Positions 10,632 through 31,682 of a DNA stretch of 32,000 bases are shown here, one piece after another; positions within the stretch are counted from its first letter, which is position 1, and every line of letters starts with the position of its first letter. The translations under genes were made by a program, and so were the position numbers. Source of the DNA: an uncultured Chloroflexia bacterium (GTDB lineage Bacteria; Chloroflexota; Anaerolineae; Anaerolineales; Anaerolineaceae); assembly GCA_963704755.1 (NCBI GenBank), contig OY969938.1, positions 2,490,001-2,522,000 on the forward strand, given 5' to 3'. The notes beneath the pieces are model-generated. The model made no database searches. It worked only from the letters and a program-made list of their open reading frames with translations, and was not told the origin of the DNA.

Positions 10632-11147
10632 TTGATTATTCTATTGGGAAAAGCGAAAGACAATTTTGTTCTTCTAGATCAATTATGTCAAGAAGGGGTC
10701 AAGATCTTTGGAATTGATGAAATTGAAAATATCAACGGTCTGAAAAACTTTGCAAAATTATTAGATTCGATATTAACAAGCCCTAAACCATCAAGTGAAT
10801 GGTTTGATGAGACTAAGTTCAAAATATTGAAACGGGTAGTGCCAGAAGCATGGGAAGCCTTCGAGACAATTAAAAATAAGACAAATATTATCCTTACATC
10901 TTACAACCGCGAAATCTTTGATCTTGAGTACACAGAAATGCTAACAAGATTTAAGACAGAATATACAACGATATTTAAATTATTCATGAAAAAATATTGG
11001 TCAGATAAAAAAATCATTAAAGCCCTTTATAAAGTTTCTGATAGCAAACTGGATGACCCTGCTATTATTAATGTATTAACTGAACTGTCATCCATAAATG
11101 AGAAAAGACGCTGGATCGAAGAAAATGAGAATTTATTAAAACTTTAA
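10632..11147 (+). CDS. same helicase-nuclease gene, segment 2 of 3 (frame actually open from 10560)
   Basis: This frame reads through from 10560 (NPQRVYFNSSIYDTEEKIISSANELIILLGK...). It is a helical insert region between the helicase motifs. Confidence 0.7.
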   Translation: MIILLGKAKDNFVLLDQLCQEGVKIFGIDEIENINGLKNFAKLLDSILTSPKPSSEWFDETKFKILKRVVPEAWEAFETIKNKTNIILTSYNREIFDLEYTEMLTRFKTEYTTIFKLFMKKYWSDKKIIKALYKVSDSKLDDPAIINVLTELSSINEKRRWIEENENLLKL

Positions 11148-11272
11148 GCGGTGCACATTATGCAAGAGATTACACTGATTGGGTAGGTTTCAGCTTTGCG
11201 CTTGAAAATTTCAAAAATATAATCGATTATTTTTATCCATCAATAATTTCAACAAAAACAAGAGAAATCCTG

Positions 11273-14200: not shown

Positions 14201-14305
14201 GGAGGGCATATAGTTGTGGCGATGGAAACTGCATTTGATTTATTAATAGGTACAGGCAGAGTTGATTATATAGATGAAAAAGTAATTATTAAACCAAATT
14301 CCTAG
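11273..14305 (+). CDS. same helicase-nuclease gene, segment 3 of 3 (frame open from 11129): AAA_11/AAA_12 motifs II-VI, Vsr/DUF559-like endonuclease, DUF3320-like tail
   Basis: Helicase motifs: FDIVVFDEASQV (motif II), IIAGDTNQLPPT (III), RWHYRSHHEHLIAFSN, VQGDERDTIIFS, GYRRLNVAITRAK (VI). The endonuclease core is GYRIDLAI...IGIECDGASYHSARTARERDRLRQAVLEDNGWKIYRIWSTDW. The C-terminal YPIHFELLCKR... region follows. Confidence 0.85.
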   Translation: MENISINDIKTINEKINGILETDILNVFIQNLAISDNVEDLQLFEIINNLKSALSIMRMLENIYEILTNSCLKELNYGELIKDLSKLGRMQEIANQVGIQYEHLRIKYLFFFNGIDTDWGRILDSLAWTNEFKKIIEKFRLSKVCVKNTCEDEKFITNAKQRLREITSKINEINTDLHWYFSLFDDKDELLTTNLHTFLTRLEDCSNSLSSLEEWIDFRSSREKCRDIGLSDYIEKIQIHKVNKETIVPAFLKRFYRLWLDAILPNYPAVYSFRRRTQDELIEEFKNLDKKQFIIAKSRIRQKLATKLPNLNQFSSAVDEVGVLKRELNKQRRFMPLRKLFREIPNLLLTLKPCLMMSPLSVSLFLNADIYKFDIVVFDEASQVCTEDAIGAILRGSQVIIAGDTNQLPPTNFFSASTSDSDFDNNDLDEDDYDDTDAYESVLDEAVTVLPERTLRWHYRSHHEHLIAFSNVKIYRNNLITFPSHINNEPNNGVEYIYVPDGVYDRSGKRNNINEANKVAELVFEHIQNFPSRSLGIVTFSEAQQQAVEMAIRQMRLENQQFETFFSEDREEDFFVKNLENVQGDERDTIIFSIGYAKDHNGVMHMNFGPLSKSGGYRRLNVAITRAKYNVKLVGSIEPTDIIIENTNSEGVKMLRSYIEFAKDGESVLQRELSIPDSIYTDSPFEDSIYQFLVSKGYSVATQVGCSGYRIDLAIKHPTLSGRFVIGIECDGASYHSARTARERDRLRQAVLEDNGWKIYRIWSTDWIKDPLTEGKKLTTAIDYAITSYNKNGFTIKKNENGEIKTTKEFSSSIEVPIKGNSITKIDNNNPYNFDYYVLADIKKVRRSNDDIQYLTDILRYVIEQEYPIHFELLCKRATYLFGNQKATVKIRRNVKYIINGYLQNEVIFRNGFYWPKRNSKIKVRISNSPGTERKLEYICSEEIAEAMFVISGHSFGIKKSDLFVATARAFGFNRTGGHIVVAMETAFDLLIGTGRVDYIDEKVIIKPNS

Positions 14306-14360
14306 TTTTTGAAATACCCTGTGTAATAATAGTGGTGAACACTTTAGATTTACCAAATCC

Positions 14361-16685
14361 ATGCTATCCAATAAAGTTGCCGAGGGGATCATGCTTCAAC
14401 AAGTGGTTAAAGATCGGATCTTAAAATCCTACGAAAATAAACAAAATTCGGGTGATCTCCCATCCGCCCAACAACTCGAAACATACTATCGATTATTCCG
14501 GCAAAGATTTGGCCCTAATACCCTCTCGGGCTTGGATGGCGAGCCCTTACTCAACCTAATGTACGATCTTGGCAATCGAGACAGCCTGGTGTATTGGCTG
14601 GAATACAAAAACGATGCTGAATTCCCGGCAATTTTTGGCAGTATCGCCGGCGGGAGTGCTTTGAAATATGGAATCTTTCGTCGAAGAGAAACAGGGGCTT
14701 GGACAATCGGATCACCTCAAAAGCAGGTTGAAATATCGGTTGCTGAAGCCATAGAAATCGCTCGGCGGAATTGGGATCAATTGATGAAAGGTGTTTTCAT
14801 TCTTCAAAACCTTCCTGATTCATCCGAGGATGCAGTTTATTTCAAACTGCAAGAAGATTTACACAAAGAAGCGCCAGGTGTCCAAGATTCCCTTTGGGGA
14901 CACAAGTATTTTCACCTGCTATTTCCGGAAAAGCTGGACACTTTTCATATGGAGAATTTACAGCAGTTTCATTTGATCAAGTTACTTCAAATGCCTCCTG
15001 AGAAAACCGGCCGCTATACATGCGCCGGCCGGTTCGTGGCCCTGGCACGTGAATGTGGCTTATCGATGAATATCCTGACGACTGTTCTCAACGATATCGA
15101 TGGGCGGCTTTATCGCTACTGGAGAATGGGAACACATGGAGGAGAAGACAACAGAAGTTATTGGAGCGAAATGGAACAGGGGAGTTACGTTTCGATTGGC
15201 TGGGATAAATTGGGAGATCTGTCTTGGCTTGAATTCAATAAAGAATTGAAAGAAAAATTTTTTAAATTGGTTTTGGATAAATACAAGAAAGATCCAGCCG
15301 TAACCGGTGGCACAGTCTCAAAAATTTTCAATTTTGTGGTTGGTATGCAAGAAGGTGATATCGTTCTAGGTGCTGATGGTAGACGCATTCAAGGTGTTGG
15401 CAGGGTTGTAGGGGGATATGAGTATCAACCCAATGGCGAATTTCCACATCACCGCCAGGTCGAATGGCTCACATTAGATCCTTGGGAATTACCTCAAACA
15501 GAGGGTCTTCAGTTTGCTATATACGCAATGAAGAAGCCTGAAAATTTAATTGCTATTGAAGAACGACTCCTCCAATATCCCGGAAAGCCCAGAAAACCTT
15601 TTATTGAAAGTGAGGGAGGTGGTTCAAGACGAACGGTACATCTTGAAGGAATATCTGGCCGGATTCAAGCTGTTTTGGATCGGAAGAAGCAAATCATTCT
15701 ATATGGCCCTCCAGGTACCGGAAAAACGTATTGGGCCAATCGCACTGCGAAAGATTTAGGGGCTTATTCTATGTTCGGAAAGTCTTTTTCAGAAATAATC
15801 GAAACCGAGAAACAGAAAATTCTAGGAAAATTTGGAGAAAAAAACGGGGTTGTCAGGCGTTGCACTTTCCATCCGGCTTATGGGTATGAAGATTTCATCG
15901 AGGGTTACCGACCTGTCTCGACCAACGGTCAATTGAGTTTCGAGAAACGCTCGGGGATATTTAAAACCATTTGTGAGGATGCACAAAAAAATCCTAATCA
16001 ACCTTATTATTTGATAATCGATGAAATCAATCGCGGAGATTTACCACGGATATTTGGGGAGCTGCTGACATTGCTGGAAAAGGATAAAAGAGGGCAGTCT
16101 ATCATTCTTCCTCTCAATGGAGATCTCTTTCAGGTCCCAGAAAATGTTTTCGTGATCGGCACGATGAACACTGCTGACCGTTCGATTGCTCTGCTAGATA
16201 CAGCTCTTCGCAGGAGGTTTGGCTTTTTAGAGCTAATGCCCGATTCGAGTTTATTGAACTTATCCATTGAGGGGTTACCATTAGGCCCTTGGCTGGATGC
16301 ATTGAATGAACGGATCCGTACCCATATCGGAAAGGATGCGCGAAATTTACAAATTGGGCATGCTTATTTTTTTGAGGGAGAGAAACCAATTAACGACAAG
16401 TTACGTTTTGTCCGAGTTTTACGCGAAGACATATTACCCTTGTTGGAAGAATATTGCTATGAAGATTATGACAACTTAAGTGAAATTCTTGGGGATCAGA
16501 TTGTTGATGCAAAAAGCCAAAGATTTAGGGAGGAGGTTCTATCACCAGAGCGTTGGGATCAATTGCTCATTGCTCTGCTTGGCCCAAATCGCGAAGTAAC
16601 AACCTCTAAAGAAGTAATTCAAACCCAGCAAAATGAACTCGAAGATCAATTAGACGAGGATACCCTAGATGTTGAATCCAATTAA
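14361..16685 (+). CDS. mcrB: McrB-like AAA+ GTPase with a long N-terminal putative DNA-reader region
   Basis: Motifs: ILYGPPGTGKTYWA, LIIDEINRGDLPRIFGELLTLLE, VIGTMNTADRSIALLDTALRRRFGF. An alternative start is ATG 14391, behind GAGGGG. Confidence 0.85.
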   Translation: MLSNKVAEGIMLQQVVKDRILKSYENKQNSGDLPSAQQLETYYRLFRQRFGPNTLSGLDGEPLLNLMYDLGNRDSLVYWLEYKNDAEFPAIFGSIAGGSALKYGIFRRRETGAWTIGSPQKQVEISVAEAIEIARRNWDQLMKGVFILQNLPDSSEDAVYFKLQEDLHKEAPGVQDSLWGHKYFHLLFPEKLDTFHMENLQQFHLIKLLQMPPEKTGRYTCAGRFVALARECGLSMNILTTVLNDIDGRLYRYWRMGTHGGEDNRSYWSEMEQGSYVSIGWDKLGDLSWLEFNKELKEKFFKLVLDKYKKDPAVTGGTVSKIFNFVVGMQEGDIVLGADGRRIQGVGRVVGGYEYQPNGEFPHHRQVEWLTLDPWELPQTEGLQFAIYAMKKPENLIAIEERLLQYPGKPRKPFIESEGGGSRRTVHLEGISGRIQAVLDRKKQIILYGPPGTGKTYWANRTAKDLGAYSMFGKSFSEIIETEKQKILGKFGEKNGVVRRCTFHPAYGYEDFIEGYRPVSTNGQLSFEKRSGIFKTICEDAQKNPNQPYYLIIDEINRGDLPRIFGELLTLLEKDKRGQSIILPLNGDLFQVPENVFVIGTMNTADRSIALLDTALRRRFGFLELMPDSSLLNLSIEGLPLGPWLDALNERIRTHIGKDARNLQIGHAYFFEGEKPINDKLRFVRVLREDILPLLEEYCYEDYDNLSEILGDQIVDAKSQRFREEVLSPERWDQLLIALLGPNREVTTSKEVIQTQQNELEDQLDEDTLDVESN

Positions 16686-18003
16686 TCAGGTAGAGCAATC
16701 ACAACAGGTAAACTTGTATTTATCAGAATGGACCATAGCTACTCCTGAAACTCATCCAGTTTTAGAGGGTTTTTCTTTCGAGAATGAGCTTCCTGCTCGA
16801 CAGATGGCTCAACGGCTAAGTGGATCAAGTCAAGTAGAGTTCTTGGAATTGACTAACGGGTTGGAAATTCGCACAAATTCAGTGGTAGGCAGCATTCGTC
16901 TTGGTAACCTATCCTTAACAATTACTCCGAAAATTAACGGGTTACCTTTATTCCGATTGATCCGCTTTGCTTATGGATTACGGGATCTGGAATTCTTTAC
17001 TGCGCAGAATTTCAGCAATCAATACCTGGCTTTCCAGGATTTATTGATTCTCCAACTCGTTTTGGAAGTTCAAGAGCTTTTTAGTCGAGGATTATTGCGC
17101 AACTACATTCGGAAAGAGGAGAAGCTTGCCAGCCCGGTTGGGAGAATAAATTTTCAACAAATTGCGAAACAAGGCGGATTGGTAGAAGCATCATTACCTT
17201 GTACAAATTCCATCCGCCTGGAAAATTGTCTTCATAATCGTGTAATCCTCTCCGGGTTAATTTTGGCTAACCAGTTTACTAGAGATATTTCTTTAAAAAG
17301 TTCTACCCGTCAGCTTGCCAAATTATTTATCCAAAGCATCGAAAAGGTGCGGTTGAATTTTGACATCCTCAGGCAGGTTGAGCGCGAATTGAACCGGCTC
17401 ACCGAGGCGTACAATCCTGCCTTGAGACTGATAGCATTATTGTTGGGTAATATTGGTGTATCAACTGATGAAGACCGTAATCAAGTACAGGTAAATGGCT
17501 TCCTCTTTGATATGAACCATTTCTTCCAGGCTTTGCTTTCAAGGTTGCTTAATAACTACCTGGATGGGTATGAGGTTGAAGATGAGCATAAACTAAAAGG
17601 ACTTCTAGCATTCGTACCCGGATATAAATTACCCGGTCGGCTTGACGCGATGCCCAGGCCAGATTTTGCCATATTCGAGAAAGGAAAGCTACTTTCGCTA
17701 TTCGATGCCAAGTACCGGGACCTTTGGAACACTGGTCTGCCTAGAGATATGCTCTATCAGCTCATCGTGTATGCACTAAGTCAGAAGGTAGAACGAAAAG
17801 CCACAATCCTTTATCCAAGCCTGGACGAAATTTCCAAGGATGCGATTATTCAAATCAATGAACCCATACAAGGTTCTGCAAATGGACATATTATTTTACG
17901 CCCCGTCAATTTACATAGAATGGAAAGCATAATCGTTGAAAAAAGAACCGATGAATTGAAATCATTCACTCACCAATTGATTTTTAAGGAACTTCTTAAT
18001 TAG
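16669..18003 (+). CDS. mcrC: McrC-like PD-(D/E)xK nuclease subunit
   Basis: It overlaps the mcrB end by 17 nt. The nuclease core is PDFAIFEKGKLLSLFDAKYRDL. Size and position are typical of McrC. Confidence 0.8.
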   Translation: MLNPINQVEQSQQVNLYLSEWTIATPETHPVLEGFSFENELPARQMAQRLSGSSQVEFLELTNGLEIRTNSVVGSIRLGNLSLTITPKINGLPLFRLIRFAYGLRDLEFFTAQNFSNQYLAFQDLLILQLVLEVQELFSRGLLRNYIRKEEKLASPVGRINFQQIAKQGGLVEASLPCTNSIRLENCLHNRVILSGLILANQFTRDISLKSSTRQLAKLFIQSIEKVRLNFDILRQVERELNRLTEAYNPALRLIALLLGNIGVSTDEDRNQVQVNGFLFDMNHFFQALLSRLLNNYLDGYEVEDEHKLKGLLAFVPGYKLPGRLDAMPRPDFAIFEKGKLLSLFDAKYRDLWNTGLPRDMLYQLIVYALSQKVERKATILYPSLDEISKDAIIQINEPIQGSANGHIILRPVNLHRMESIIVEKRTDELKSFTHQLIFKELLN

Positions 18004-18806: not shown

Positions 18807-20340
18807 ATGCCTAAGAACAATCAAAAAAGTAAAAACGGGAACGGCGCTGCGCTGGGAATTGAACACGAACTATGGGAGGCGGCCGACAAGCTGCGCGGCC
18901 ACCTGGACGCGGCCGATTACAAGTCGGTGGTGCTGGGGCTGATCTTTCTCAAGTATGTCTCGGACATGTTCGAGCAGGTGCGTGCCCGTGTGGAGGAAGA
19001 GGGCTTGGACGATCCCGAGGACCGCGACGTGTACCTGGCGGAGCGGACCTTCTGGGTGCCCAGGGACGCGCGCTGGAAGGTCCTGCAGGACAATGCCAAG
19101 CAGGAATCGATCGGCAACCGGATCGACCAGGCCATGGAGGCCATCGAGCGGGACAACCCCTCGTTGAAAGGCATGCTCCCCAACAATTATGGTCGCGCCA
19201 CGCTGGACAAGCGCCGGCTGGGCGACCTGGTCGACCTGGTCAGCAACAAGATCAACTTTACTGACGAGGAAAGCCGCAAGCAGGATACGCTTGGGCGGGT
19301 GTACGAATACTTCCTCTCGCAGTTCGCCAGCCAGGAAGGCCGCAAGGGCGGCGAGTTCTACACGCCGCGCTCGGTGGTGCGTGTGCTGGTAGAAATGCTG
19401 GCTCCCTATAAAGGACGGGTCTTCGACCCGTGCTGTGGTTCGGGCGGGATGTTCGTGCAAAGCGAGAAGTTCGTCGAGGCGCACGGCGGCCGGGTGGGCG
19501 ACCTGTCGGTGTACGGACAGGAATCCAACCCCAACACCTTCAAGCTGGCCAGGATGAACCTGGCCATTCGCGGCATCGAGGGCGACCTGGGCAAGGAGCC
19601 GGCCGACTCGTTCCACCGCGACCAGCATCCCGACCTGAAGGCCGACTTTGTGCTGGCAAATCCGCCCTTCAATATGAGCGATTGGGGCGGCGATCTGCTG
19701 CGCGAGGACAAACGCTGGCAGTACGGCCTGCCACCGGCCGGCAACGCCAACTTCGCCTGGGTGCAGCACTTCATCCACCACCTCTCGCCCAACGGGGCGG
19801 CCGGCTTTGTGCTGGCCAACGGCAGTATGTCGAGCAACACCTCCGGAGAAGGCGAGATCCGCAAGAACATCATCGAGGCCGACCTGGTGGACTGCATGGT
19901 GGCCCTGCCGGGGCAGTTGTTCTACAGCACGCAGATCCCGGTGTGCCTGTGGTTTTTAGCCAGGAACAAGAAGAACCGCGGCGGGCAGACCCTGTTCATC
20001 GACGCGCGTAAGCTGGGCACACTGACCGACCGGGTGCACCGCGACCTGAGCGACGAGGACATCGCCCAGATTGCCGGCACCTTTCACACCTGGAAGAAGG
20101 GCCAGGGCTACGCAGATGTACCCGGCTTTTGCAAATTGGTTTCGATTGAAGAAATCCGTGCGCAGGGTTACGTGCTCACGCCTGGGCGTTATGTAGGTGC
20201 AGCGGAACTGGAGGAAGACGACGAGCCATTTGGTGAAAAGATTGCAAGATTTAACAAGAGAGTTGGAAGAGCAGTTTGAAGAAGGGAGGAGATTAGAAGA
20301 CCTTATTAGTAAAGGGCTAAAAAAACTTGAATATGAATAA
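18807..20340 (+). CDS. hsdM: type I R-M N6-adenine DNA methyltransferase HsdM (frame breaks near 20250; annotated stop 20279, repaired stop 20340)
   Basis: The N-terminus is [33 protein letters not shown]. Motif I is [11 protein letters not shown] and motif IV is LANPPFN. After ...FGEKIAR the +1 frame reads [29 protein letters not shown], a typical HsdM C-terminal helix that overlaps the hsdS ATG. Confidence 0.9.
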
Positions 20341-21490
20341 AGAATGGGAATTGGTTAGGATTGGAGAAATTTGCGAAGCCATCTTCGATGGACCACACGC
20401 CACGCCTAAGAAAACAACCAAAGGCCCAATTTTTCTCGGTATTTCGAATCTTCAAAATGGAAGAATCGACCTTTCGGATGTCGATCACCTTTCGGAAGAT
20501 GATTTTATCAACTGGACCCGAAGAGTTACTCCCCGAGAAAATGATGTAGTTTTTTCATATGAAACACGCTTGGGTGAAGCAGCAATTGTTCCTAAAGGCC
20601 TGAGGTTTTGTCTGGGTCGGCGTATGGCATTGATACGTCCTAATACACAAAAAGTAGATCCCCGCTTTTTGCTTTATTCATACCTGGGGCCAGAGTTTCA
20701 ACAGACCCTGCAGGCACGAACAGTTCACGGAAGCACAGTAGATAGAATTCCGCTTATCGAATTTCCCGATTTTCCAATTTCTATACCTCCTCTTTCTGAA
20801 CAACGCGCCATTGCAGGGATTCTCGGTGCGCTGGACGACAAGATCGAACTCAACCGACGCATGAACCGCACGCTCGAGTCCATTGCACAGGCGGTGTTTC
20901 GAGAATTAATGAAGGATGAAGACGGAAAGATAACGACTGGTAAGGTTGGAGAAGAATACAATTTGACAATGGGACAATCGCCGCCAGGTGAAACTTATAA
21001 CGAAGAAGGTGTAGGGACTCCTTTCTATCAAGGGCGTCGAGATTTCGGCTTTAGGTATCCAGAAAATCGCGTTTATTGCACTGCCCCCACAAGGTACGCA
21101 AAATCGGGTGATACCCTTGTTAGCGTTAGGGCTCCTGTTGGTGATATTAATATGGCAAAGGAAGATTGTACAATCGGCAGAGGAGTTGCTGCAATCAGGC
21201 ATAAAACAGGTAGTCGTTCTTACACTTACTATGCAATGAAATACCTCGAAAACGATTTTAAGAGTTTTGAAGCAGAAGGAACAGTTTTTGGCTCAATAAA
21301 TAAAGCAGATTTCCAAAATCTTGAAATTAGCATCCCTACAATTGAACAGGTACAGAAATTTGAAGAAATTTGCTTCCCGATCGACCAAATGATCGAGAAC
21401 AATGAAAAAGAAACCCACACGCTGGCTAATCTGAGAGATAGTCTGCTGCCAAAGTTGATGCGAGGCGAAGTGCGTGTGAAGGATGTCTGA
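20333..21490 (+). CDS. hsdS: type I R-M specificity subunit HsdS (two target-recognition domains)
   Basis: WELVRIGEICEAIFDGPH...IPPLSEQRAIAGILGALDDKIELNRRMNRTLESIAQAVF is the central conserved region, and ...LANLRDSLLPKLMRGEVRV is the C-terminal conserved region. The gene is A+T-rich, unlike hsdM and hsdR. Confidence 0.9.
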   Translation: MNKEWELVRIGEICEAIFDGPHATPKKTTKGPIFLGISNLQNGRIDLSDVDHLSEDDFINWTRRVTPRENDVVFSYETRLGEAAIVPKGLRFCLGRRMALIRPNTQKVDPRFLLYSYLGPEFQQTLQARTVHGSTVDRIPLIEFPDFPISIPPLSEQRAIAGILGALDDKIELNRRMNRTLESIAQAVFRELMKDEDGKITTGKVGEEYNLTMGQSPPGETYNEEGVGTPFYQGRRDFGFRYPENRVYCTAPTRYAKSGDTLVSVRAPVGDINMAKEDCTIGRGVAAIRHKTGSRSYTYYAMKYLENDFKSFEAEGTVFGSINKADFQNLEISIPTIEQVQKFEEICFPIDQMIENNEKETHTLANLRDSLLPKLMRGEVRVKDV

Positions 21491-21593
21491 ACTATGATTG
21501 GAATGATTTTTGGATGGACTATGAGTGAACCGGGACGCATGGATAGGACCTTTGCATTCAGCTAAATCGTGATCCCAGACCAGGGGAAAAGGC

Positions 21594-22019
21594 ATGATCA
21601 ACGAACAATATCTCCACTCAGAATTGACGGGTAAAATCATCGGTTGCGCGATGGAAGTCCACAAAACGCTGGGGAACGGATTCCAGGAAGTCATCTATCA
21701 ACGTGCGTTGGAAATCGAAATGAGTCAGCAGGGACTGGCGTTCAGCCGCGAGCACGAAATGGACATTTTCTATAAAGGCGCCAAGATCGGCAATCGCCGC
21801 GTGGATTTCTTTGTAGAGGAGAAAATCATGGTTGAGATCAAGGCGATCATTCAATTGGAGGACGTTCACCTGGCCCAGGCCATCAACTATTTGGAAGCCT
21901 ACGGACTAGAAGTTGGTCTGCTGCTCAACTTTGGCAGCCGCAGCTTGCAATTCAAACGGGTCATGAAGCCAACAGGAGATCATGCAAAAATGCCTCGTCT
22001 AAATCAAAGTCCATCATAG
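21594..22019 (+). CDS. GxxExxY protein (PD-(D/E)xK-like, TIGR04256-type)
   Basis: SELTGKIIGCAMEVHKTLGNGFQEVIYQRALEIEM...DFFVEEKIMVEIKA...QAINYLEA...GLLLNFG is the characteristic pattern, including GFQEVIY. Confidence 0.85.
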   Translation: MINEQYLHSELTGKIIGCAMEVHKTLGNGFQEVIYQRALEIEMSQQGLAFSREHEMDIFYKGAKIGNRRVDFFVEEKIMVEIKAIIQLEDVHLAQAINYLEAYGLEVGLLLNFGSRSLQFKRVMKPTGDHAKMPRLNQSPS

Positions 22020-22061
22020 AATCATGGAAATCATAGTTCAAGACAATGCGTACATGCTACG

Positions 22062-22101
22062 GTTGATGCGGGGTGAAGTGCGCGTGAAGGATGTGGAGTA
22101 A
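22062..22101 (+). pseudogene. relic 3' end of an hsdS gene
   Basis: It reads (L)MRGEVRVKDVE*. Positions 22062-22094 match 21454-21486 (the real hsdS 3' end) at 30 of 33 nt. Confidence 0.65.
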
Positions 22102-22103
22102 AA

Positions 22104-23633
22104 ATGGAAGCTAAACTTACTGAGAACGCGCTAGATGCAGATTTTGTAGCTAATGGTCTTCTACGACACAATTATTTTCCAACCCAAAAGGAAGATAAAG
22201 ACGAATTACCTCAAGTCTTCACATCAACGGATCTTACTGTCGAATTAGCTAATCAAATAATAACTGGGAAACGCAGAAAAAAAGATGGTTTCGATACAAT
22301 TGAATATAAACTAACACGTTTCAATGGTGTTTCGAGAATATGTTCTATACCACATCCAGCAGCATATGCCGATCTTGCCATCTGTATTCGAGATAATTGG
22401 AGTTCAATAAAATATATATCTCAGAATGAAAAAAGCGTAATAAAACCTCAAAAACATGACGATGGGCGCATCATTATTATGGATTACGAAAGTTCAATTT
22501 TTAGAGAACGGCGCCAATTAAAATCAATGTTTTCTCGGCGATTCATGGTTAAAACGGATATATCAAATTGTTATCCAACTATTTACTCTCATGCAGTACC
22601 TTGGGCTCTTGTGGGTTTTGATGATGCGAAAAAGAAGAAAGGCCAACGCACAAATTGGTTTAATCAATTAGATGAAAAAGTCCGTTGGATGAAGCGAAAT
22701 GAGACGCAGGGTATCGCCATAGGTCCTGCAACTTCTAATATTATTTCTGAAATCATTTTGGCTCGAATTGATGAAAAAGCAGTGGACAATCCAGATTACG
22801 TTAAATTCATTGATGATTATACTGGGTATTTTTCAACCGAAAGTGATGCACAAAAATTTATTCGGGAATTGGAAGATAGCCTCGGAAAATATAAACTGCT
22901 TTTAAATTTAAAAAAGACACAAATTATTGAATTGCCCCAACCGTTATCAGATGATTGGATAACAGAACTCACTTTGCGTTTGCCAAAATCAAACGAAACA
23001 TACACAGTTACTCGTAATGAGGCTATACGATTTCTAAATTTTGCCGTGGGGTTATCGAAACAATCTCCAGATGGGAGTGTTATGAAATATTCTCTAAAGA
23101 GCATATTGAAGCAATCAATAGAAGAATCAGCGAAGATTGACATTTTACATTTTGCACTTCAATTATGCTTTCATAACCCAATACTTATTCCTTTAATTAA
23201 AAACATCTTGGCGGATCTTGACGAAAACGAGTTTGAAGAGGTCAGACCTCAATTGGAAGAACTTGCCATTCAAAACGCGATGTTTCATCGCTCAGATGGC
23301 ATGGTTTGGCCTCTTAGCTTTTTAGGATCAAGAAAAACTAATATCTCTGAAAGAGTTGTAGAGGAAGTTATTAAAACCAGGGATTGTTTACCATTGCTTA
23401 TGGTTTATGAATATGGCAATAAAAGCCAAAAAACGAAAATCATTCAAATCGCAGAAGAAATTATTAGTCATTCGGATAATTATGAAATTGATCAGTACTG
23501 GATGCTTCTATATCAGTTGTTCCTAGATGAAAAGATTTCAAATCCCTACAAAGATGAAGATTGCTTTGAGATTTTAAAAGTGTCAAATGTGTCATTCGTA
23601 AAAAACGAAGTCAATCGAACAGAAAATGTCTGA
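22104..23633 (+). CDS. Abi/UG-class (defence-associated) reverse transcriptase with an all-helical C-terminal domain
   Basis: Palm motifs: A = FMVKTDISNCYPTI (Asp codon 22557-22559), B = QGIAIGPATSNIISEI, C = KFIDDY (DD codons 22812-22817). There is no maturase, RNase H or integrase part. The 509-aa size and helical tail resemble single-gene AbiK/Abi-P2-type RTs. Confidence 0.8.
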   Translation: MEAKLTENALDADFVANGLLRHNYFPTQKEDKDELPQVFTSTDLTVELANQIITGKRRKKDGFDTIEYKLTRFNGVSRICSIPHPAAYADLAICIRDNWSSIKYISQNEKSVIKPQKHDDGRIIIMDYESSIFRERRQLKSMFSRRFMVKTDISNCYPTIYSHAVPWALVGFDDAKKKKGQRTNWFNQLDEKVRWMKRNETQGIAIGPATSNIISEIILARIDEKAVDNPDYVKFIDDYTGYFSTESDAQKFIRELEDSLGKYKLLLNLKKTQIIELPQPLSDDWITELTLRLPKSNETYTVTRNEAIRFLNFAVGLSKQSPDGSVMKYSLKSILKQSIEESAKIDILHFALQLCFHNPILIPLIKNILADLDENEFEEVRPQLEELAIQNAMFHRSDGMVWPLSFLGSRKTNISERVVEEVIKTRDCLPLLMVYEYGNKSQKTKIIQIAEEIISHSDNYEIDQYWMLLYQLFLDEKISNPYKDEDCFEILKVSNVSFVKNEVNRTENV

Positions 23634-23779
23634 CAACACACTGTACCAACAAAATAAATATACTCATGCCGGCCCAGCGGCGGAAAGAGTTATTGTCTTT
23701 GCTGGAAGCTTTTTTACATGCCAGGCTACGTCCGCGATATGAGGGATAAGAGTAGGAATAGAATTTCTTAAGGAGGTTA

Positions 23780-23842
23780 ATGATGAAAGCGTTAGGAAAA
23801 ACGACCGAAACAGAACAACAAAATTTCAGTACAATATATTAA
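23780..23842 (+). CDS. micro-ORF (20 aa) with a canonical SD
   Basis: AAGGAGG (23770-23776) precedes ATGATG at 23780. It encodes MMKALGKTTETEQQNFSTIY*. Coding status is unproven. Confidence 0.25.
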   Translation: MMKALGKTTETEQQNFSTIY

Positions 23843-23873
23843 AACTGTTTTTTTGAGCAGGAGGGGTGGAATT

Positions 23874-24374
23874 ATGATTGAAATTGTTTCCAACCTTTTT
23901 ATCGGTAATGAACAAGATTATGAGTATCGAGTAAAGGGACAGACTGGCTGGAGAGTAGTCCATGCTTGTAAAGAGCCATATCACCGGCAAGCACTTGGAT
24001 ATAAGTCTCGTGGAGCTCCTAAAGATCACCCAGAATACCTAATTGCACAAAGAGGTGATCGCCTTATTCTAAATTTAGTAGATGCTCCCAGCCCTGCTTT
24101 TATTCCAAAAGAAATAATTGATGGTGCTCTTGAGTATATACATAAAGGATTAAGCGAAGGTCGAAAAGTTTTGGTTCATTGCAACCTTGGTGAATCGCGT
24201 TCCCCGAGTATTGGGCTACTCTATTTAGCAATATATACCAATATACTTCCAGATGAGTTTGCCTCGGCGGAACAAAAATTCCACGAAATATACCCCTTAT
24301 ATAATCCTGGTGCGGGTATCCGAGGATTTGTTATAAGCAATTGGGACTTGTATCAATCACGAAAGGAGTGTTGA
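23874..24374 (+). CDS. Cys-X5-Arg (dual-specificity/PTP-like) phosphatase
   Basis: AGGAGG lies 7 nt before ATG 23874. The N-terminus IVSNLFIGNEQD and the P-loop VLVHCNLGESRSPSIGLLYL (HCxxGxxRS) are present. Confidence 0.8.
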   Translation: MIEIVSNLFIGNEQDYEYRVKGQTGWRVVHACKEPYHRQALGYKSRGAPKDHPEYLIAQRGDRLILNLVDAPSPAFIPKEIIDGALEYIHKGLSEGRKVLVHCNLGESRSPSIGLLYLAIYTNILPDEFASAEQKFHEIYPLYNPGAGIRGFVISNWDLYQSRKEC

Positions 24375-24376
24375 CT

Positions 24377-25958
24377 GTGAAACTAACATTCTATCTTTTC
24401 AACGATACAGTTCATGATTTCAATGGCGCTCTTGACCTGGACAAACTAGATGAAGAAGAGGGATTTAAAGAAATTGAGTTGATCGAGGGTTTGCCGTTTG
24501 TGGCCAAGGCATATTTTCAACAAAATAAAAAGACAAAACCCCAATGGTTAGATTTTATAAAAGACTATGTCAAGGTAAATGAGGAAGAAGTATTCAATAC
24601 AACAAATTCATTTCTGCTACTCATAATGTGTGAAAACAGAATCTTTGCGATTAATCAGGGTTTTGGCTTTTTAGCCCTTAATCGTAAAAAGCTTGAGAAG
24701 GGATTTGGCCTAAAGGTTGTTCTGAATGAGATTGACCCCCAAAAAATTAAAAGTGTTGAAGCAAGGAATATAGACACAACAACAAAACAAAAAAGAGTCT
24801 TAATAAACAGAAGTAGTCCTCTTTACGAATTTGATTTTGATTTCGATGAGGATTTAGTGAGTATCATTTCTGGACGGCCCAGCGATGCAGCGCTTGCCCG
24901 TAAATTGATGGGATCTGATTCTCTAAGTCTTAATGCGGATATTGAATTTGTAGATTTAGGCGAAAAGTGTTTGCAACTTCTTATTTCTTTTAACAAAGAT
25001 AATTACCACCAGAATTTCCCTTTTATTGATTACTTACAAGTTGTAAGGGATGAAGAGTTACTTGTACAACTTGAGGATGTTTTAAAGACCAACATTAATA
25101 ACCGAGACCCAGAAAATCTAAATCTGGCATACCCTGAAATACCCGATTTTGAGCAAATTGAGAATTTCAAGATATGGTCTGGTCACGATCATAATTTTGT
25201 AGAGGATGTTGATATAACACAACTCTTCAATTTTCTGGATGAATATGAACTTGATTGTGATGTGGAAGGTATTTACATAAGTGGTGTGAACAGCGATGAG
25301 CAACAAGTAACTAAGAAGTTTAGCCTTCATGACTTCGTTGTTTTTGAAACAGTCTTTTCCGATACGCGGTATATATTATCATTGAACCAGTGGTTTGAAC
25401 TTGCTAGCGATTTCGTCGACAGGGTAAATCAAGAATTGATTCATATCCCAGAAATTGAGTCTGACTTTTTACCTGCCTTACACTATGGGGATAGAGAAGG
25501 CGCATATAATTCTTCTGTAGCGGAAAGTAGAACCGATATTGTTTCATTGGACAAAAATAATTACATGGTTGAAGGTGAAGGACAAAGTAGAATTGAGGTA
25601 TGCGATCTCCTGACGGAAAACAAAGAATTTATTTGTGTAAAGAAATACAACGGTTCTTCAACCTTAAGCTCACTTATTTAATCAAGGCTTTGTTAGCGCG
25701 ACCCTGCTTAATGATGAACAACGGTATCGCAATTTCATTATTTCTGAATGTCCTGCTGGATTTGTTGATCCTGTTATTACCGAAACAGGTTTGGAAAGAG
25801 AAAAGATTACTTTTGTTTTCGCAATCGCAACGGATACCACTGGGCCACTTGCTGAAAATTTACCATTCTTTAGCAAGGTTAATCTTGTTAAGACAAATAA
25901 AGCCATAAAACGAATGGGCTTTGATGTAAAAATTTATAAAATAGAAATCGTTCCTTAA
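24377..25958 (+). CDS. TIGR04141/DUF6119-like protein (frame breaks at about 25670; about 526 aa when bridged)
   Basis: GTG 24377 lies 8 nt after AAGGAG and 3 nt after the phosphatase stop. The listed ORF ends ...GSSTLSSLI*. The next frame, open from 25668, reads HLFNQGFVSATLLNDEQRYRNF...KIYKIEIVP* to 25958. The joined block IEVCDLL..ICVKK..SSTLSHLFNQG fits my recollection of this family. Confidence 0.65.
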
Positions 25959-25966
25959 GGTAATCC

Positions 25967-28900
25967 GTGCCTCATTTCACCGAATCCACCATTGAGCAAG
26001 CCACCATCGATTGGCTCACCGGCCTGGGCTACGAATACGCCTTCGGCCCGGAGATCGCCTGCGATGGCGAGCACCCCGAGCGCCGCGATTACCTGGAAAC
26101 GATCCTGGTGGGGCGGTTGCAGAGCGCCATTGCGCGCATCAACCGCGAGCTGCCGGCCCAGGCCCAGGAAGAGGCGCTCTACAAGGTCACTCATCCGGGC
26201 AAACCCTCGCTGCTGCTCAACAACCACGCCTTCCATCACCTGTTGATCAACGGGGTGGAGGTGGAATACAAGCGCAGCAGTCCTGTGGACAAGAATGAGG
26301 ATGGACGTACGGTTAACGGGCGGGCCTACCTGGTGGATTTCAGCGACCCGGACAACAACGACTGGCTAGTGGTCAACCAGTACACGGTGGAGGCCGCCCA
26401 CCAGAACGGCGTGGTCAACCGCCGGCCGGACGTGGTCATCTTTCTCAACGGGCTGCCGCTGGCAGTCATCGAGCTCAAGAACGCTGCCGATGAAAACGCC
26501 ACCATCTGGTCGGCTTTCAACCAGTTACAGACCTACAAGAACGACATCCCAGCCCTGTTCCACACCAACGAGCTGCTGATCGTCTCGGACGGGCTGAACG
26601 CCCGCTTCGGTTCGTTGACCGCCAACAAGGAATGGTTCCTGCCCTGGAAGACTATCGAGGGCGAAGCCACCGCACCGGCATCCATATCCCAACTGGAAGT
26701 GCTGCTCCAGGGTATGTTCGAGAAGCGCCGCTTCCTCGACCTGATCCGCTACTTCATCGTCTTCGAGCAGGAACGCGGCGCGCCGACGATCAAGAAAATC
26801 GCCGGCTACCACCAGTTCCATGCCGTCAATTACGCGCTGACCGAAACCATCCGGGCCTCGTACGACAAGGCCGAAGCGGTCAAAGAGTTGAAAGGCACCT
26901 ACCTGGCCGAACCCATGCGCGGCGGGCAAAAAGGCGACCATCGCATCGGCGTCATCTGGCATACCCAGGGTTCGGGCAAGAGCCTGACGATGGTTTTCTA
27001 TGCCGGCCGGCTGGCCTTGCATCCCGCGATGGAAAACCCTACCATCGTGGTCATCACCGATCGCAACGACCTGGACGACCAGCTCTTCGGCACCTTCTCG
27101 CGCTGCGCCGAGGTACTGCGCCAGACTCCCGAGCAGGCCGCCAGCCGCGAAGACCTGATCGAAAAACTCAAAGGACGCCGGGCGGGCGGGGTCTTCTTCA
27201 CCACCATCCAGAAGTTTATGCCCACAGCCGAATTGGGCGGCCCGCTTTCGGAGCGGAGCAATATCATCGTCATTGCCGACGAAGCCCATCGCAGCCAGTA
27301 TGATTTCATCGATGGCTACGCCCGTCACATGCGCGACTCCCTGCCTAACGCCTCCTTCATCGGCTTTACCGGCACACCCATCGAGCACACCGACGCCAAC
27401 ACCCGTGCCGTGTTCGGCGACTACATCAGCATCTACGACATCCAGCAGGCGGTCGAGGACGGCGCCACGGTCAAGATCTATTACGAAAGCCGGCTGGCCA
27501 AATTGGAGCTGGACGAAGCCGAAAAGCCAAAGATCGACCCGGAATTCGACGAGGTGACCGAGGGCGAAGAGCTGGAAAAGAAGGAAAAGCTCAAGACCAG
27601 GTGGGCCGCGCTGGAGGCCATCGTCGGCACCGAGAAGCGCATCGACCTGATCGCCAGGGACGTGGTGGACCACTTCGAAAAGCGCCTGGAAGTGCTGGAC
27701 GGCAAGGCCATGATCGTGTGCATGTCGCGCCGCATCTGTGTCGATCTGTATAACGCCATCATCCGGCTTCGCCCTGGTTGGCACTCCCGCGATGACAAGC
27801 AGGGCGTGCTTAAGATCGTGATGACCGGCAATGCCACCGATCCGCTGGATTGGCAGCAGCACGTGCGCACCAAAGCCCGCCGTGAGGAGCTGGCTTTGCG
27901 CTTCAAGGACCCTGCCGACCCGTTCAAGATCGTCATCGTGCGCGACATGTGGCTGACCGGTTTCGACGTGCCGCCCCTGCACACCATGTATATCGACAAG
28001 CCCATGCAGGGCCACGGGCTGATGCAGGCCATCGCGCGGGTCAACCGCGTGTACAAAGATAAGCCCGGCGGCCTGATCGTGGATTACCTCGGCCTGGCCT
28101 ACCACCTGCAAAAAGCGCTGGCCACTTACACCGAAGCCGGTCACCCGGCCGAGACCCCCAACCAGGAAGAAGCGGTCAACGAGCTGCTCAAGCGCTACGA
28201 GATCTGCAAGGGGCTTTTCCACGGCTTCGATTGGTCGAAATACTTTTCCGGCACAGCCCAGGAACAGCTCGGCGTGCTGCCGATGGCAATGGAGCACATC
28301 CTCACCCTGGAGGACGGCAAGAAGCGCCTGCTGCAGGCTGTGCGCGAACTATCGCTGGCCTTTGCCCTGGCCGTCCCGGATGATCGCGCGCTGGCCATCC
28401 GCGACGACGTGGCCTTCTTCCAGGCCGTGCGCAGCGCCTTCGTCAAGTCCACGGTGGATGGCGAAAAGAGCGCCGAAGACCTGGACCAGGCTATCCGCCA
28501 GATCCTATCGCGAGCCGTCTCGGCCGGTGACCAGGTCATCGACATCTTCGCCGCCGCCGGCCTGAAAAAACCGGAAATATCTATCCTTTCGGACGAATTC
28601 CTGGCCGAAGTCAAAGGCATGCCGCAGAAGAACCTGGCCATCGAGCTGCTGCGCAAACTGCTCAACGACGAGCTCAAACAGCACATGAAAAAGAACCTGG
28701 TGCAGTCGCGCTCCTTCACCGAGATGCTCGAACGGACCATCCGTTCCTATCAGAACCGCACTATCGAGTTGGCCGAGGTGATCGCTGAGCTGATCAAGCT
28801 GGCCGAAGAGATGCGCGAAGCCCAAAAACGCGGCGAGCGGCTCAACCTCAGTGAGGACGAGATCGCCTTTTACGACGCGCTGGAAGTCAACGATAGCGCG

Positions 28901-30042: not shown

Positions 30043-31251
30043 ATGCAACCGGTTTGTCACGGCCGGTCCGGAAAGGTAGGCGGGGCTATGGCAGCCAATT
30101 CACCAACCCCATTGACCGCCCAGGAGCAGCGCACGGAACGCGCACGCGAAGCGCTGCGGGCGAACACTTTCCGCATCGCCCCGATAGGTGCGGATACCTG
30201 GTCGGTAAAGAACGGCGACAAGGTGCCCTACACCGTCCGGCACGTGGAAAACAACTGGAACTGCACCTGCCCGGATTTCTCCCAATTCGGCCCGTCCATT
30301 CGCTGCAAGCACGTCGAAGCGGTGCGCATCATTCAGGAGGAAAACGGTAACAGTGTCCCTACTATTGAGCCACCCATAGGCAACGAGGCCGAAAATGATT
30401 CGGCCCGCATCCGCAATGAACTCAACAAACCACTGGATATGGCCCGCGTCAAGCGCCGCCAGGCTCCCGGCAAAGGGACGGTTCCTTACCTGGAAGGGTA
30501 CGAGATGATCCAGCGCGCCAACGAGATCTTCGCGTTTGGCTGGTCTTTCGACCTGCTGAAGGATCCCACCATTATCCGCTGGCAAAAGACGCAAACCCAA
30601 TACAGCCAACAGCAGCGTTGCAAAGTACCCGTCCTGGACGATCAGGGCCGGCCGCTGCTGGAAGAGGTCGGGATCGTCTGGATCACCGGGAAGGTCACGG
30701 TCGAGCTAGACGGCAGGCCGATCTGCCATGCCGACGTAGGGCGCTGCAGCTTCACCGGCGACACCCCCGAGGCGCTCGACATGGCCATCGCCGGCGCTGC
30801 TACGGATTGCCTGAAGCGCTGCCTGCGCCAGTTTGGCGACCAGTTTGGCCTGTCCCTTTACGACAGGGACGTGGCCCAGACGGCCGGGTTGGAGCGAGGT
30901 AATGGGCATGCGAATAGTCACGCGAGCAGCTCCCCCGGTGGGAATGGCGGTTCCACCGCCCAACCTGCCGGTCGAACGACCCGCCAGACTCCCCCGGCGA
31001 AGTCGTCTGCACCTACGAGCGCTTTCGAAGCGGGTAAAGTGATCTTCACCCTTAAGCCCAAGACTCGCCCCGAGCTGTCCGGAAAAACGCTGGCCGAATT
31101 GCAAAGGCAGGCCCCGGATATCCTGGCCTGGCTGGCCAGCGATTACACCCCCACATCCGAGACTCAGGCGTTGAAAGATGCCGCCCGGCTGTTGGTCCAA
31201 TCCAAAGCCCGGGAGGACAAGGTCATCGCCGATCTTGGTTTCCGCAACTGA
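30043..31251 (+). CDS. SWIM zinc-finger / Rad52-Rad22-type single-strand annealing protein fusion
   Basis: The SWIM motif is CTCPDFSQFGPSIRCKHVEAV (CxC-x11-CxH). The Rad52-like core runs VPYLEGYEMIQRANEIFAFGWSFDLL...GDTPEALDMAIAGAATDCLKRCLRQFGDQFGLSLYD. The start is uncertain (ATG 30043 or 30088). Confidence 0.75.
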   Translation: MQPVCHGRSGKVGGAMAANSPTPLTAQEQRTERAREALRANTFRIAPIGADTWSVKNGDKVPYTVRHVENNWNCTCPDFSQFGPSIRCKHVEAVRIIQEENGNSVPTIEPPIGNEAENDSARIRNELNKPLDMARVKRRQAPGKGTVPYLEGYEMIQRANEIFAFGWSFDLLKDPTIIRWQKTQTQYSQQQRCKVPVLDDQGRPLLEEVGIVWITGKVTVELDGRPICHADVGRCSFTGDTPEALDMAIAGAATDCLKRCLRQFGDQFGLSLYDRDVAQTAGLERGNGHANSHASSSPGGNGGSTAQPAGRTTRQTPPAKSSAPTSAFEAGKVIFTLKPKTRPELSGKTLAELQRQAPDILAWLASDYTPTSETQALKDAARLLVQSKAREDKVIADLGFRN

Positions 31252-31277
31252 CTTTTCAACACCCAAAGGAGCAAGAC

Positions 31278-31682
31278 ATGTATCACACGATCATCCTGGC
31301 CGGCAACCTGGGAAATGATCCGGTCATGCGCTATACCCCCAACGGACAGCCGGTGACCACATTTTCTGTGGCGACCAACCGCCAGCACAACCCGGCGGAT
31401 GGCAGCGGGCCGGTTAAAGAAACCACCTGGTTTCGCGTGACTACCTGGGGCAAGCAAGCCGAGGTCTGCAACGAGTACCTGCGCAAGGGTACCAAGATCC
31501 TGGTCGAAGGACGATTGACGCCTGACCCGGAAACGGGTGGGCCGCGCATTTTCAACCGGCAGGACGGGTCGGCCGGCGCTTCTTACGAAGTCACGGCCAC
31601 CACCGTGCGTTTTCTGTCCGCTAAACAGAACGACGAAACCAACAACCCGGCCGCCAATTCCACGGATGACATCCCTTTCTAA
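31278..31682 (+). CDS. ssb: single-stranded DNA-binding protein
   Basis: AAGGAG SD. The OB-fold reads IILAGNLGNDPVMRYTPNGQPVTTFSVATN...WFRVTTWGKQAEVCNEYLRKGTKILVEGRL. The acidic tip is DDIPF. Confidence 0.9.
   Translation: MYHTIILAGNLGNDPVMRYTPNGQPVTTFSVATNRQHNPADGSGPVKETTWFRVTTWGKQAEVCNEYLRKGTKILVEGRLTPDPETGGPRIFNRQDGSAGASYEVTATTVRFLSAKQNDETNNPAANSTDDIPF

Follow-up and report, generated by a model that had tools for sequence, protein, structure and literature searches.

A dual-specificity-type phosphatase and a DUF6119 protein as candidate accessory defense cargo of a type I restriction–modification operon

In a 32,000-nucleotide stretch of DNA from an uncultured Chloroflexia bacterium (contig OY969938.1, positions 2,490,001 to 2,522,000; hereafter the window), two adjacent genes lie between hsdS and hsdR of a type I restriction–modification (R-M) operon. 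The first (23874-24374) encodes a small cysteine-based phosphatase, whose family we call PH, and the second encodes a protein of the DUF6119/TIGR04141 family. The original prediction, made from the sequence alone, took them for an undescribed two-gene defense module; their tight coupling stands and the pair recurs in close relatives, but a dedicated system is not supported. With slightly better than even confidence, we read PH as a partner-agnostic defense accessory phosphatase that sits beside a stand-alone, PrrC-like back-up effector, probably a nuclease of the PD-(D/E)xK type. The two would be separate cargo modules of the operon that arrived together in a 5.7-kb AT-rich replacement segment. 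We regard PH as most likely a generic accessory because its catalytic residues are invariant, it is conserved at the level of the Hsd proteins, it keeps a strict upstream position and it is indifferent to its partner.

Results

An intact phosphatase gene and an interrupted DUF6119 gene

The argument turns on the following features.

23874..24374, + strand: PH, an intact gene for a 166-aa Cys-phosphatase of the dual-specificity phosphatase (DUSP) fold; ATG 23874, TGA 24372-24374, GGAGGGG in front
24377..25681, + strand: DUF6119/TIGR04141 gene, 5' part; codons 1-431 in the family frame, then SLI and a stop
25667..25673, + strand: 1-nt insertion, AGC-T-CAC, at about 25670, inside the invariant motif S-x-T-L-S-H-L-F-x-Q-G
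25671..25958, + strand: DUF6119 gene, 3' part, in the +1 frame (HLFNQG...KIEIVP, then stop); TAA 25956-25958

The DUF6119 gene starts at GTG 24377, 2 nt past the PH stop and behind an AAGGAG at 24363-24368. The gene ends and starts were correctly predicted; the start is confirmed by the homologs, which all begin MKLTFYLF. Its frame 0 ends at TAA 25679-25681 to give a 434-aa product identical to database protein P0001. A one-residue gap in an alignment with 46 homologs, where the family encodes S-H, places a single-base insertion, and removing that base restores a protein of 526 aa, the length originally estimated for the bridged gene. This repaired protein matches Pfam DUF6119 (PF19614) over the entire profile (1-524/524; 446.5 bits, cutoff 27, E 1.7e-133) and TIGR04141 (435.3 bits, cutoff 35, E 2.7e-130), and these full-length matches bear out the family membership first proposed for it. 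In PHROGs the family is phrog_18579, function not annotated, and its architecture is uniform, with about 520-560 aa in every match.

All 20 columns that are invariant across 47 sequences are intact in the window on both sides of the break (W57, FGL..LN 110-117, G166, G179, Y210, D218, E374, D392, E407, D410, K422, the S, H, L and Q of the interrupted motif, and S500). This points either to inactivation in the very recent past or to a sequencing error; the insertion site lies outside any homopolymer run. As it stands the gene is probably dead, with the SHLFxQ helix and the last strands lost, and it is very unlikely that the truncated 434-aa product functions. Programmed +1 frameshifting at ATT-TAA was also considered and rejected, since the site lacks a slippery or stimulatory context and such a shift would be expected to replace the invariant H432 and F434.

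PH stands before many unrelated defense genes

The surroundings of PH were examined in 80 metagenomic loci at 59-76% identity, drawn from a PH alignment search; counts of hsd genes around PH, made with hidden Markov models (HMMs) built for this analysis, are lower bounds. PH is co-directional with its neighbors and often tightly spaced from them, overlapping the upstream gene by 4 nt (-4) in 13 loci and leaving a median downstream gap of about 13 nt. The immediate upstream gene is hsdS in 15 loci. Where there is more than 2 kb of room, hsdS lies upstream of PH in 20 of 38 loci, and where there is more than 5 kb, hsdR lies downstream in 12 of 19, so that a typical operon reads hsdS-(other genes)-PH-variable defense gene(s)-hsdR. 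In none of 21 loci does hsdR directly follow PH, and exactly one gene intervenes in 10 of the 21; across the 16 operons in which hsdS and hsdR are both visible, PH never occupies the last place before hsdR (P = 0.0037 for random placement).

The genes directly after PH fall into more than 30 unrelated clusters. Several match PADLOC defense models: an AAA_13 protein (PDC-S06, 846 bits), a CBASS CD-NTase (Cyclase, 425 bits), a DUF3644 protein (PDC-S19, 542 bits), a DUF1883-TIR protein (PDC-S66/ThsB-like) and a DUF6978 protein (PDC-M24A). Further partners are Fic, Mrr_cat and DUF3800 proteins and a deaminase-HATPase_c_4 protein. PH also occurs in fusions, namely Abi_C-PH, PH-cytidine deaminase-HATPase_c_4-HTH and PH-HATPase_c_4 (fusion and partner loci: L125 5230-6870; L129 3427-5070; L149 2063-4045; L154 556-1764). 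In L125 and L129 the deaminase-HATPase_c_4 protein is encoded by a separate gene downstream of PH, whereas elsewhere the two are fused, and their relationship is therefore of the Rosetta-stone type.

Outside type I R-M operons, PH follows CBASS genes (SMODS + SAVED), an OLD-like AAA_15/21 ATPase gene or a UvrD-type helicase gene. In locus L135 (4187-7489) it stands directly after a complete CBASS pair of SMODS cyclase and SAVED effector, and in L126 (3-2227) it overlaps the 3' end of the gene for an OLD-like AAA_15/AAA_21 ATPase; a BLAST and HMM screen found no hsd gene on either contig.

PH relationships take little account of what follows the gene. In only 11 of 32 cases does a PH share its partner class with its closest PH relative, and unrelated partners follow PHs that are 87-92% identical: near-identical pairs are L170 (DUF6119) and L097 (cyclase), L107 (DUF3800) and L106 (DUF3644), and L085 and L093. 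The DUF6119-linked PH of L170 is 87% identical to a cyclase-linked PH and 71% identical to that of the window. So weak a link between PH relationships and partner speaks against PH being co-adapted to any single partner, and DUF6119 is no exception.

The same data bear on whether PH might be an accessory or regulatory subunit of the type I R-M enzyme itself, serving HsdR control, establishment or the reversal of phage-kinase inactivation, with its adjacency to cargo being incidental. PH often overlaps the hsdS stop by the 4 nt noted above; its between-locus identity (60-76%) is of the same order as that of HsdM (63-74%) and HsdR (59-69%) and tracks HsdM identity (r = 0.68); and in L106 and L107 a remnant of the 5' end of hsdR directly after PH suggests an ancestral hsdS-PH-hsdR order. 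Against this, none of the 21 loci holds an extant hsdS-PH-hsdR operon, PH also stands next to CBASS, OLD-like ATPase and UvrD-like genes on contigs where the BLAST and HMM screen detected no hsd gene, it occurs in phages too, and other cargo separates hsdS from PH in the window, L164 and L170. We consider a subunit role improbable.

DUF6119 and its pairing with PH

The DUF6119 context was sampled with a 21-sequence alignment as query, which yielded 80 loci at 28-43% identity, one genome per species. Within 8 kb of DUF6119, none of these distant loci gave a match to a PH HMM, and a DUF6119 HMM found the family in one of the 80 metagenomic PH loci (L132); the co-occurrence expected outside the window thus fails at the level of the families. 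The only recurring neighbors of distant DUF6119 genes are type I R-M genes, in 11 of the 80 loci, with the order hsdM-hsdS-DUF6119-(x)-hsdR in 7. Other neighbors belong to mobile elements: integrases, resolvases, a TrwC relaxase, HTH-Peptidase_M78 regulators, SNF2 helicases and DUF1156 methyltransferases. A DUF6119 homolog was found on 31 plasmids, 15 of them conjugative. Apart from its type I R-M company, DUF6119 is thus solitary, occurring in mobile elements and defense islands.

Closer to the window, eleven DUF6119 relatives, which with the window make twelve loci, were each examined individually. Ten of the twelve (9 of the 11 relatives) have hsd genes; this close clade is nearly always placed between hsdS and hsdR, and in most loci DUF6119 is the last gene before hsdR, 5-30 nt away. 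PH lies directly upstream of DUF6119 in the window and in the loci of P0002 (75% identity), P0003 (74%) and P0010 (65%), with a spacing of -4 to +2 nt where it is intact (window, L175, L164, L170), and it persists in decayed form beside P0004 (74%). It is absent beside P0005 (73%), P0012 (65%, in a plain hsdM-hsdS-DUF6119-hsdR operon), P0015 and P0016 (52%), P0030 (47%) and P0035 (45%). Five of the seven members at 65% identity or more, the window included, therefore have the pair, and none of the five at 45-52%. Small unannotated ORFs (open reading frames) before DUF6119 in the PH-less relatives were considered as divergent PHs; only the 130-aa ORF at the P0004 locus (L172 5710-6102) is a PH, decayed, truncated at both ends and with conserved motifs substituted, next to an intact DUF6119. 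The window shows the mirror image, an intact PH and a broken DUF6119. The pair is real, but it is confined to a shallow clade and is facultative even there.

An obligate pair, in which PH would be the sensor or regulator and DUF6119 the effector, a nuclease held off or switched on by dephosphorylation, would account for the near-zero spacing in the window, L175, L164 and L170, for the decayed PH that still precedes DUF6119 in L172 and for the hsdR 5' remnants that bracket PH-DUF6119 in L164. PH and DUF6119 are moreover always neighbors when they share an operon, even where cargo separates PH from hsdS. It does not account for reciprocal co-occurrence of 0/80 and 1/80, for relatives at 73% and 65% identity in which DUF6119 stands alone between hsdS and hsdR, or for L172, which retains an intact DUF6119 while PH decays. 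DUF6119-linked PHs are often closest to PHs with other partners and are not one another's nearest relatives, so no co-evolution with the partner was found, and no kinase is encoded in the PH-DUF6119 operons. We judge a dedicated two-gene system of this kind to be quite unlikely.

PH has a dual-specificity phosphatase fold

The Cys-X5-Arg P-loop HCNLGESRS that had been pointed out in the first gene is present at residues 102-110 (H102-C103-N-L-G-E-S-R109-S110), in the form HCX5R(S/T). H102, C103 and R109 are invariant in 31 homologs and S110 nearly so (90% or more); all 43 family-invariant residues are found in the PH of the window, and the family has an invariant insert of its own, H30-A-C32-K-E-P-Y-H37-R ... 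P53-E-Y-L56 (HACKEPYHR...HPEYL). Against Pfam DSPc (PF00782) the protein scores 31.5 bits, below the gathering cutoff of 33.5, which some homologs pass (for example the L125 fusion, 36.2 bits). Its top PDB sequence match is DUSP26 (E 1.9e-6). An AlphaFold model with a predicted local distance difference test (pLDDT) score of 88.5 gave 128 Foldseek matches in the PDB at E ≤ 1e-3, and the 50 matches listed are all DUSP-family or DUSP-like domains (prob 1.0, TM 0.6-0.77). On the predicted structure, the DUSP-fold assignment is secure despite the sub-cutoff DSPc score.

The invariant D70, 33 residues before C103, is a candidate general acid from sequence alignment. In that alignment it falls 2 residues off the Asp of the DUSP26 HDSPAF segment, which we take to be the general acid of that enzyme. 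The P-loop pattern HCxxGxSRS is of the protein-DUSP type, unlike the HCTHGxNRTG form of RNA triphosphatases. With its Cys nucleophile, Arg and conserved Asp, PH is, as judged from these residues, an active-looking phosphomonoesterase of the dual-specificity type.

The family comprises more than 1,600 clusters at 90% identity, and an exhaustive search gave 250 clusters at 50% identity at E ≤ 1e-30 and 802 at E ≤ 1e-10. Nearly all members are stand-alone proteins of 160-175 aa, and mean column identity is 75%.

True members at 38-48% identity, with the family motifs kept, also occur in a few phages, some of them lytic, including Vibrio phage 1.077.O (L173 4453-5498) and Tunturiibacter phage Tunturi_3 (L174 5001-5510); a scan of viral contigs gave only 5 PH loci, one of which, like the metagenome locus L118, is on a contig of 24,025 nt and is probably that locus. 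The PH gene of Vibrio phage 1.077.O overlaps by one base a gene for a HAD_PNKP-type polynucleotide phosphatase, and a metallophosphoesterase gene lies near. These neighbors hint at nucleic-acid end processing or counter-defense.

The C-terminal domain of DUF6119 as a candidate nuclease

The AlphaFold model of DUF6119 (pLDDT 76.5) lays out an N-terminal region of about 370 aa with no assigned fold, of which residues 121-180 are disordered and lack confident modeling, and a C-terminal domain of about 155 aa. In the latter, predicted secondary structure (DSSP: H374-384, E388-390, E411-413, E417-423, H431-446, E478-485; pLDDT mostly 70-95) follows an alpha-beta-beta-beta-alpha-beta topology, which is the order of a PD-(D/E)xK core. 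The block originally described here with spacers of eight and seven residues in fact has six and six (IEVCDLL-TENKEF-ICVKK-YNGSST-LSHLFNQG).

In the model, E374 lies on helix 374-384, D392 after strand 388-390, E407 and D410 on the strand at about 407-413, and K422 on strand 417-423, and the S-H-L-x-x-Q motif lies on helix 431-446 (alpha2). The part of the gene beyond the break (25671..25958) encodes alpha2 and the last strands of this nuclease-like domain. The invariant D410 and K422 sit on beta2 and beta3, respectively; in beta3 the customary acidic residue gives way to C or H, and E407 or E374 could take its place. On the model, we put the chances that the domain is a variant PD-(D/E)xK nuclease at roughly even. 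The best PDB fold matches of the model, though weak, feature nucleases of PD-(D/E)xK type prominently (4g6u, CdiA-CT EC869; 4zqu, CdiA-CT YPIII; 4dav, SfsA; 4rea, FAN1; 2ziu, Mus81), and a Foldseek search of the viral BFVD library returned noise only.

Remnants of hsdR at cargo borders

Short remnants of the 5' end of hsdR, covering its first 16-62 codons and carrying the motif FTES.IEQA..DWL, mark cargo borders in related type I R-M operons.

L164: 4521-4595 and 6845-6946
L094: 3005-3088
L084: 4528-4605
L106: 2881-3024
L107: 2835-2921
L123: 6039-6095
L141: 10156-10341
L170: 6333-6380 (weak)

In L164 a remnant stands on either side of the pair, one before PH and one immediately past the DUF6119 stop (E 2.6e-9), which delimits PH and DUF6119 there as a single cassette; an Mrr cassette and then the real hsdR come next. 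A remnant follows PH and a 733-aa protein gene in L094 (E 4e-6), PH with a cyclase gene and a 210-aa protein gene in L084, and PH alone in L106 (E 1e-7) and L107. The pattern suggests that recombination, with the conserved 5' end of hsdR as its anchor, stacks the cassettes. In the window no hsdR 5' remnant was detectable, including upstream of PH.

Remnants of this kind mark the slot as a recombination sink, as would be expected if PH and DUF6119 were non-immune, selfish or hitch-hiking cargo (for addiction or for the maintenance or competition of mobile elements) in an hsdS-hsdR recombination hotspot. Distant DUF6119 genes often lie near integrases, resolvases and relaxases, and also on conjugative plasmids, and the pseudogenes of DUF6119 in the window and of PH in L172 point to weak selection. 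The same slot, however, houses the validated defense genes PrrC and TgvAB (PMC12707154, PMC11411939) and, in the window, DRT4; the partners of PH score highly on PADLOC defense models; and the PH family is under strong purifying selection, as its mean column identity indicates. Of the explanations we weighed, selfish cargo is the least likely.

The operon, its acquired segment and the surrounding island

The ORF map gives the operon of the window as hsdM-hsdS-GxxExxY-DRT4-PH-DUF6119-hsdR, with all genes co-directional on the + strand. Besides the two main genes it comprises the following.

18807..20279, + strand: hsdM, type I R-M methyltransferase subunit and first gene of the operon; 63-74% identity to HsdM of PH loci
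20327..21490, + strand: hsdS, specificity subunit; BLAST/HMM matches to Methylase_S genes of related loci; GC 0.39-0.53
21594..22019, + strand: GxxExxY / PDDEXK_3 protein; Pfam PDDEXK_3 E 4.7e-40, TIGR04256 E 9.2e-42
22104..23633, + strand: DRT4 antiviral reverse transcriptase; NCBIfam Drt4 565 bits (cutoff 450), PADLOC Drt4 618 bits
25967..29131, + strand: hsdR, restriction/translocase subunit; 59-69% identity to HsdR of PH loci; GC-rich from its first codons

The hsdM counterparts in related loci carry Pfam HsdM_N and N6_Mtase, and genes related to hsdR carry HSDR_N, ResIII, SWI2_SNF2 and T1RH-like_C domains. The GxxExxY/PDDEXK_3 gene directly 3' of hsdS is a further small cargo gene of nuclease fold. 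DRT4 is a known single-gene defense system, and here it is independent cargo that shares the operon; it was not present in the other PH-DUF6119 loci (L164, L170, L172, L175). A three-gene unit of DRT4, PH and DUF6119 was ruled out on this ground, the reverse transcriptase being missing from every other PH-DUF6119 locus.

Host DNA in the window has a GC content of about 60-68%, against 31-53% in a sharp-edged segment from about 20200 to 25960. GC falls from 0.61 to 0.39 within 20150-20250, so that the final ~100 nt of hsdM are already inside the segment, and rises from 0.33 to 0.67 at about 25960 (25958-25970), in the first codons of hsdR. From these edges we infer that hsdS and all four cargo genes were imported as a foreign replacement segment of 5.7 kb, for which the conserved hsdM and hsdR flanks were the likely recombination anchors. 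The two main genes, noted as A+T-rich at the outset, both lie inside it. Within the segment, hsdS and GxxExxY have 42-53% GC whereas DRT4, PH and DUF6119 have 31-44%, and the donor was therefore itself mosaic. A consensus scan of the operon for promoters and terminators gave fewer sites than shuffled sequence and no terminator-like site on the + strand between 20000 and 26000, which is consistent with one transcription unit. In the 240-nt gap between DRT4 and PH lies a 20-codon ORF (MMKALGKTTETEQQNFSTIY) at 23780-23842 with a strong AAGGAGG in front; it is not kept as an ORF in the related locus L164.

Farther upstream there is another AT-rich island (window 7404-18003).

7404-8030: DUF4145 gene
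8771-10579: DUF4011/AAA_11 ORF
11273-14302: AAA_11/AAA_12/REase_MTES_1575 ORF
14361-16682: McrB-like AAA_5 gene, overlapping the McrC gene at 16669-18003

The ORFs at 8771-10579 and 11273-14302 resemble one large helicase-nuclease split in two. The defense context first proposed from the R-M operon and a neighboring reverse transcriptase holds, the latter being specifically DRT4 and the McrBC-like genes lying upstream, and everything between 6.5 and 29 kb is a defense island. Just 3' of hsdR (30043-31679) lie genes for a Rad52/22-family annealing protein and SSB, which suggest the border of a prophage or integrative element.

Discussion

Accessory defense cargo within a type I R-M operon is already a known kind of arrangement, exemplified by PrrC and TgvAB, although it is thinly explored. 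PrrC is embedded in EcoprrI, where the R-M enzyme is proposed to keep it in check until a phage inhibits restriction and so releases it (PMC12707154). Like the anticodon nucleases PrrC and RloC of type Ic R-M loci, DUF6119 is one added gene, for a putative effector, that is inserted between hsd genes and transcribed along with them, and this guardian-type placement, inside the hsd operon and co-directional with it, was found in the window, in 9 of the 11 close relatives and in 11 of the 80 distant loci. DUF6119 differs from PrrC in lacking ABC-ATPase and HEPN motifs, the two share no similarity of sequence or fold, and a role of DUF6119 as a DNA or RNA nuclease is a prediction; AAA_13 proteins, which are PrrC-type ATPases, are themselves frequent partners of PH. 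TgvAB of Vibrio cholerae VPI-2, a two-gene type IV restriction system that forms an independent defense layer, is embedded in a type I R-M cluster (PMC11411939). It resembles PH and DUF6119 in being two co-directional genes of formerly unknown function that interrupt a type I R-M operon, but TgvAB belongs to the GmrSD (DUF262/DUF1524) family and is a conserved pair, whereas PH and DUF6119 are distributed independently.

In its predicted architecture, a large N-terminal region followed by a C-terminal alpha-beta-beta-beta-alpha-beta domain with invariant acidic residues and a Lys, DUF6119 is like the single-protein defense nucleases with an N-terminal sensor and a C-terminal PD-(D/E)xK domain, such as Shedu SduA, and like CdiA-CT EC869-type toxins, but the searches found no significant homology to them; its motif, E-x-x-D...[C/H]-V-K...S-H-L-x-x-Q, is non-canonical. 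PH resembles atypical eukaryotic and archaeal DUSPs (DUSP26, DUSP12, MKP5/DUSP10, VHR) in fold (TM 0.6-0.77), in its HCxxGxSRS P-loop and in an Asp, the candidate general acid, about 33 residues before the Cys. It differs from them in its distribution among bacteria, archaea and phages, in an invariant insert of its own and in a defense-operon context. PglZ of BREX and the PP2C of TerY-P are further phosphatase-family proteins that immune operons conserve or genetically require. Their folds, alkaline-phosphatase-like and PP2C, are unrelated to that of PH, and they are fixed members of their systems where PH is promiscuous. What PglZ acts on is a question that a review has raised (PMC12707154).

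We envision that DUF6119 is a stand-alone effector with the type I R-M operon as its preferred home, and by analogy with PrrC in EcoprrI it would most likely act as a restriction-linked back-up nuclease of the abortive-infection type. Its N-terminal region, presumably sensory, DNA-binding or regulatory, would sense a trigger or keep the protein inactive, and the nuclease-like C-terminal domain would then cut nucleic acid. PH would most likely act on a substrate common to many systems rather than on DUF6119 specifically. Candidates are a phosphoprotein produced by a phage or host kinase during infection, or a phosphorylated nucleic-acid end, for which the PNKP-type neighbor in phage offers a weak hint.

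A more general version of this idea is that PH is a hitherto unrecognized immune "leader" gene, a partner-agnostic accessory placed before interchangeable effectors in type I R-M operons and other defense islands and acting on one shared target, with DUF6119 a guardian-class stand-alone nuclease. PH might then signal to the effectors what state the restriction enzyme is in, remove the marks left by phage kinases, or strip phosphate from nucleic-acid ends and so keep phage repair enzymes from reversing the damage. We regard this version as possible but doubtful.

Several observations weigh against the reading of PH as a partner-agnostic accessory beside a nuclease-type effector. That PH is never last before hsdR, and that it is fused to cargo domains in some loci, argues for its working with the genes downstream rather than in full independence. 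Our HMMs detected no hsd gene in about 40% of PH loci. The tight pair in five of the seven closest members, together with the L164 cassette, leaves room for what may be a clade-specific partnership, and the phage PH homologs fit a nucleic-acid or counter-defense role as well as they fit host defense. As for DUF6119, the beta3 motif is C/H-V-K and not (D/E)-x-K, the best Foldseek match of the full-length model in the PDB (4g6u, CdiA-CT EC869; E 0.012, prob 0.89) is not significant, PDB sequence and profile searches were empty, and a Pfam scan of eight C-terminal domains at E ≤ 10 returned DUF6119 alone. The PD-(D/E)xK-style core first proposed for this protein thus keeps its predicted topology and invariant residues but gains no significant match in sequence or structure. 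Neither family has a model in PADLOC-DB v2.0.0, a scan of which gave no match to PH or to DUF6119 at E ≤ 0.01.

That scan also agrees with the earlier remark that no named defense system consists of this pair: PH and DUF6119 are in no PADLOC v2 model, while PDC-S06, PDC-S19, PDC-S66 and PDC-M24 describe genes that follow PH elsewhere. The literature searched held nothing relevant on DUF6119/TIGR04141, on a phosphatase together with type I R-M, or on a dual-specificity phosphatase in anti-phage defense. Both families are therefore new as defense candidates, described as such neither in PADLOC v2 nor in the literature searched, and PH is the more original lead of the two.

Overall, the hsdR 5' remnants suggest a concrete and testable mechanism for the stacking and exchange of cargo in type I R-M operons. 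DUF6119 would extend the list of candidate stand-alone nucleases with a widespread "sporadic" family of plasmids, integrative elements and type I R-M operons. By our PADLOC v2 scan and literature search, no Cys-based dual-specificity phosphatase has been described in anti-phage defense; if PH does generally modulate effectors, or block phage repair or counter-defense, it would represent a new functional class in defense islands, and the gene that follows it would become a candidate effector, which would aid effector prediction.

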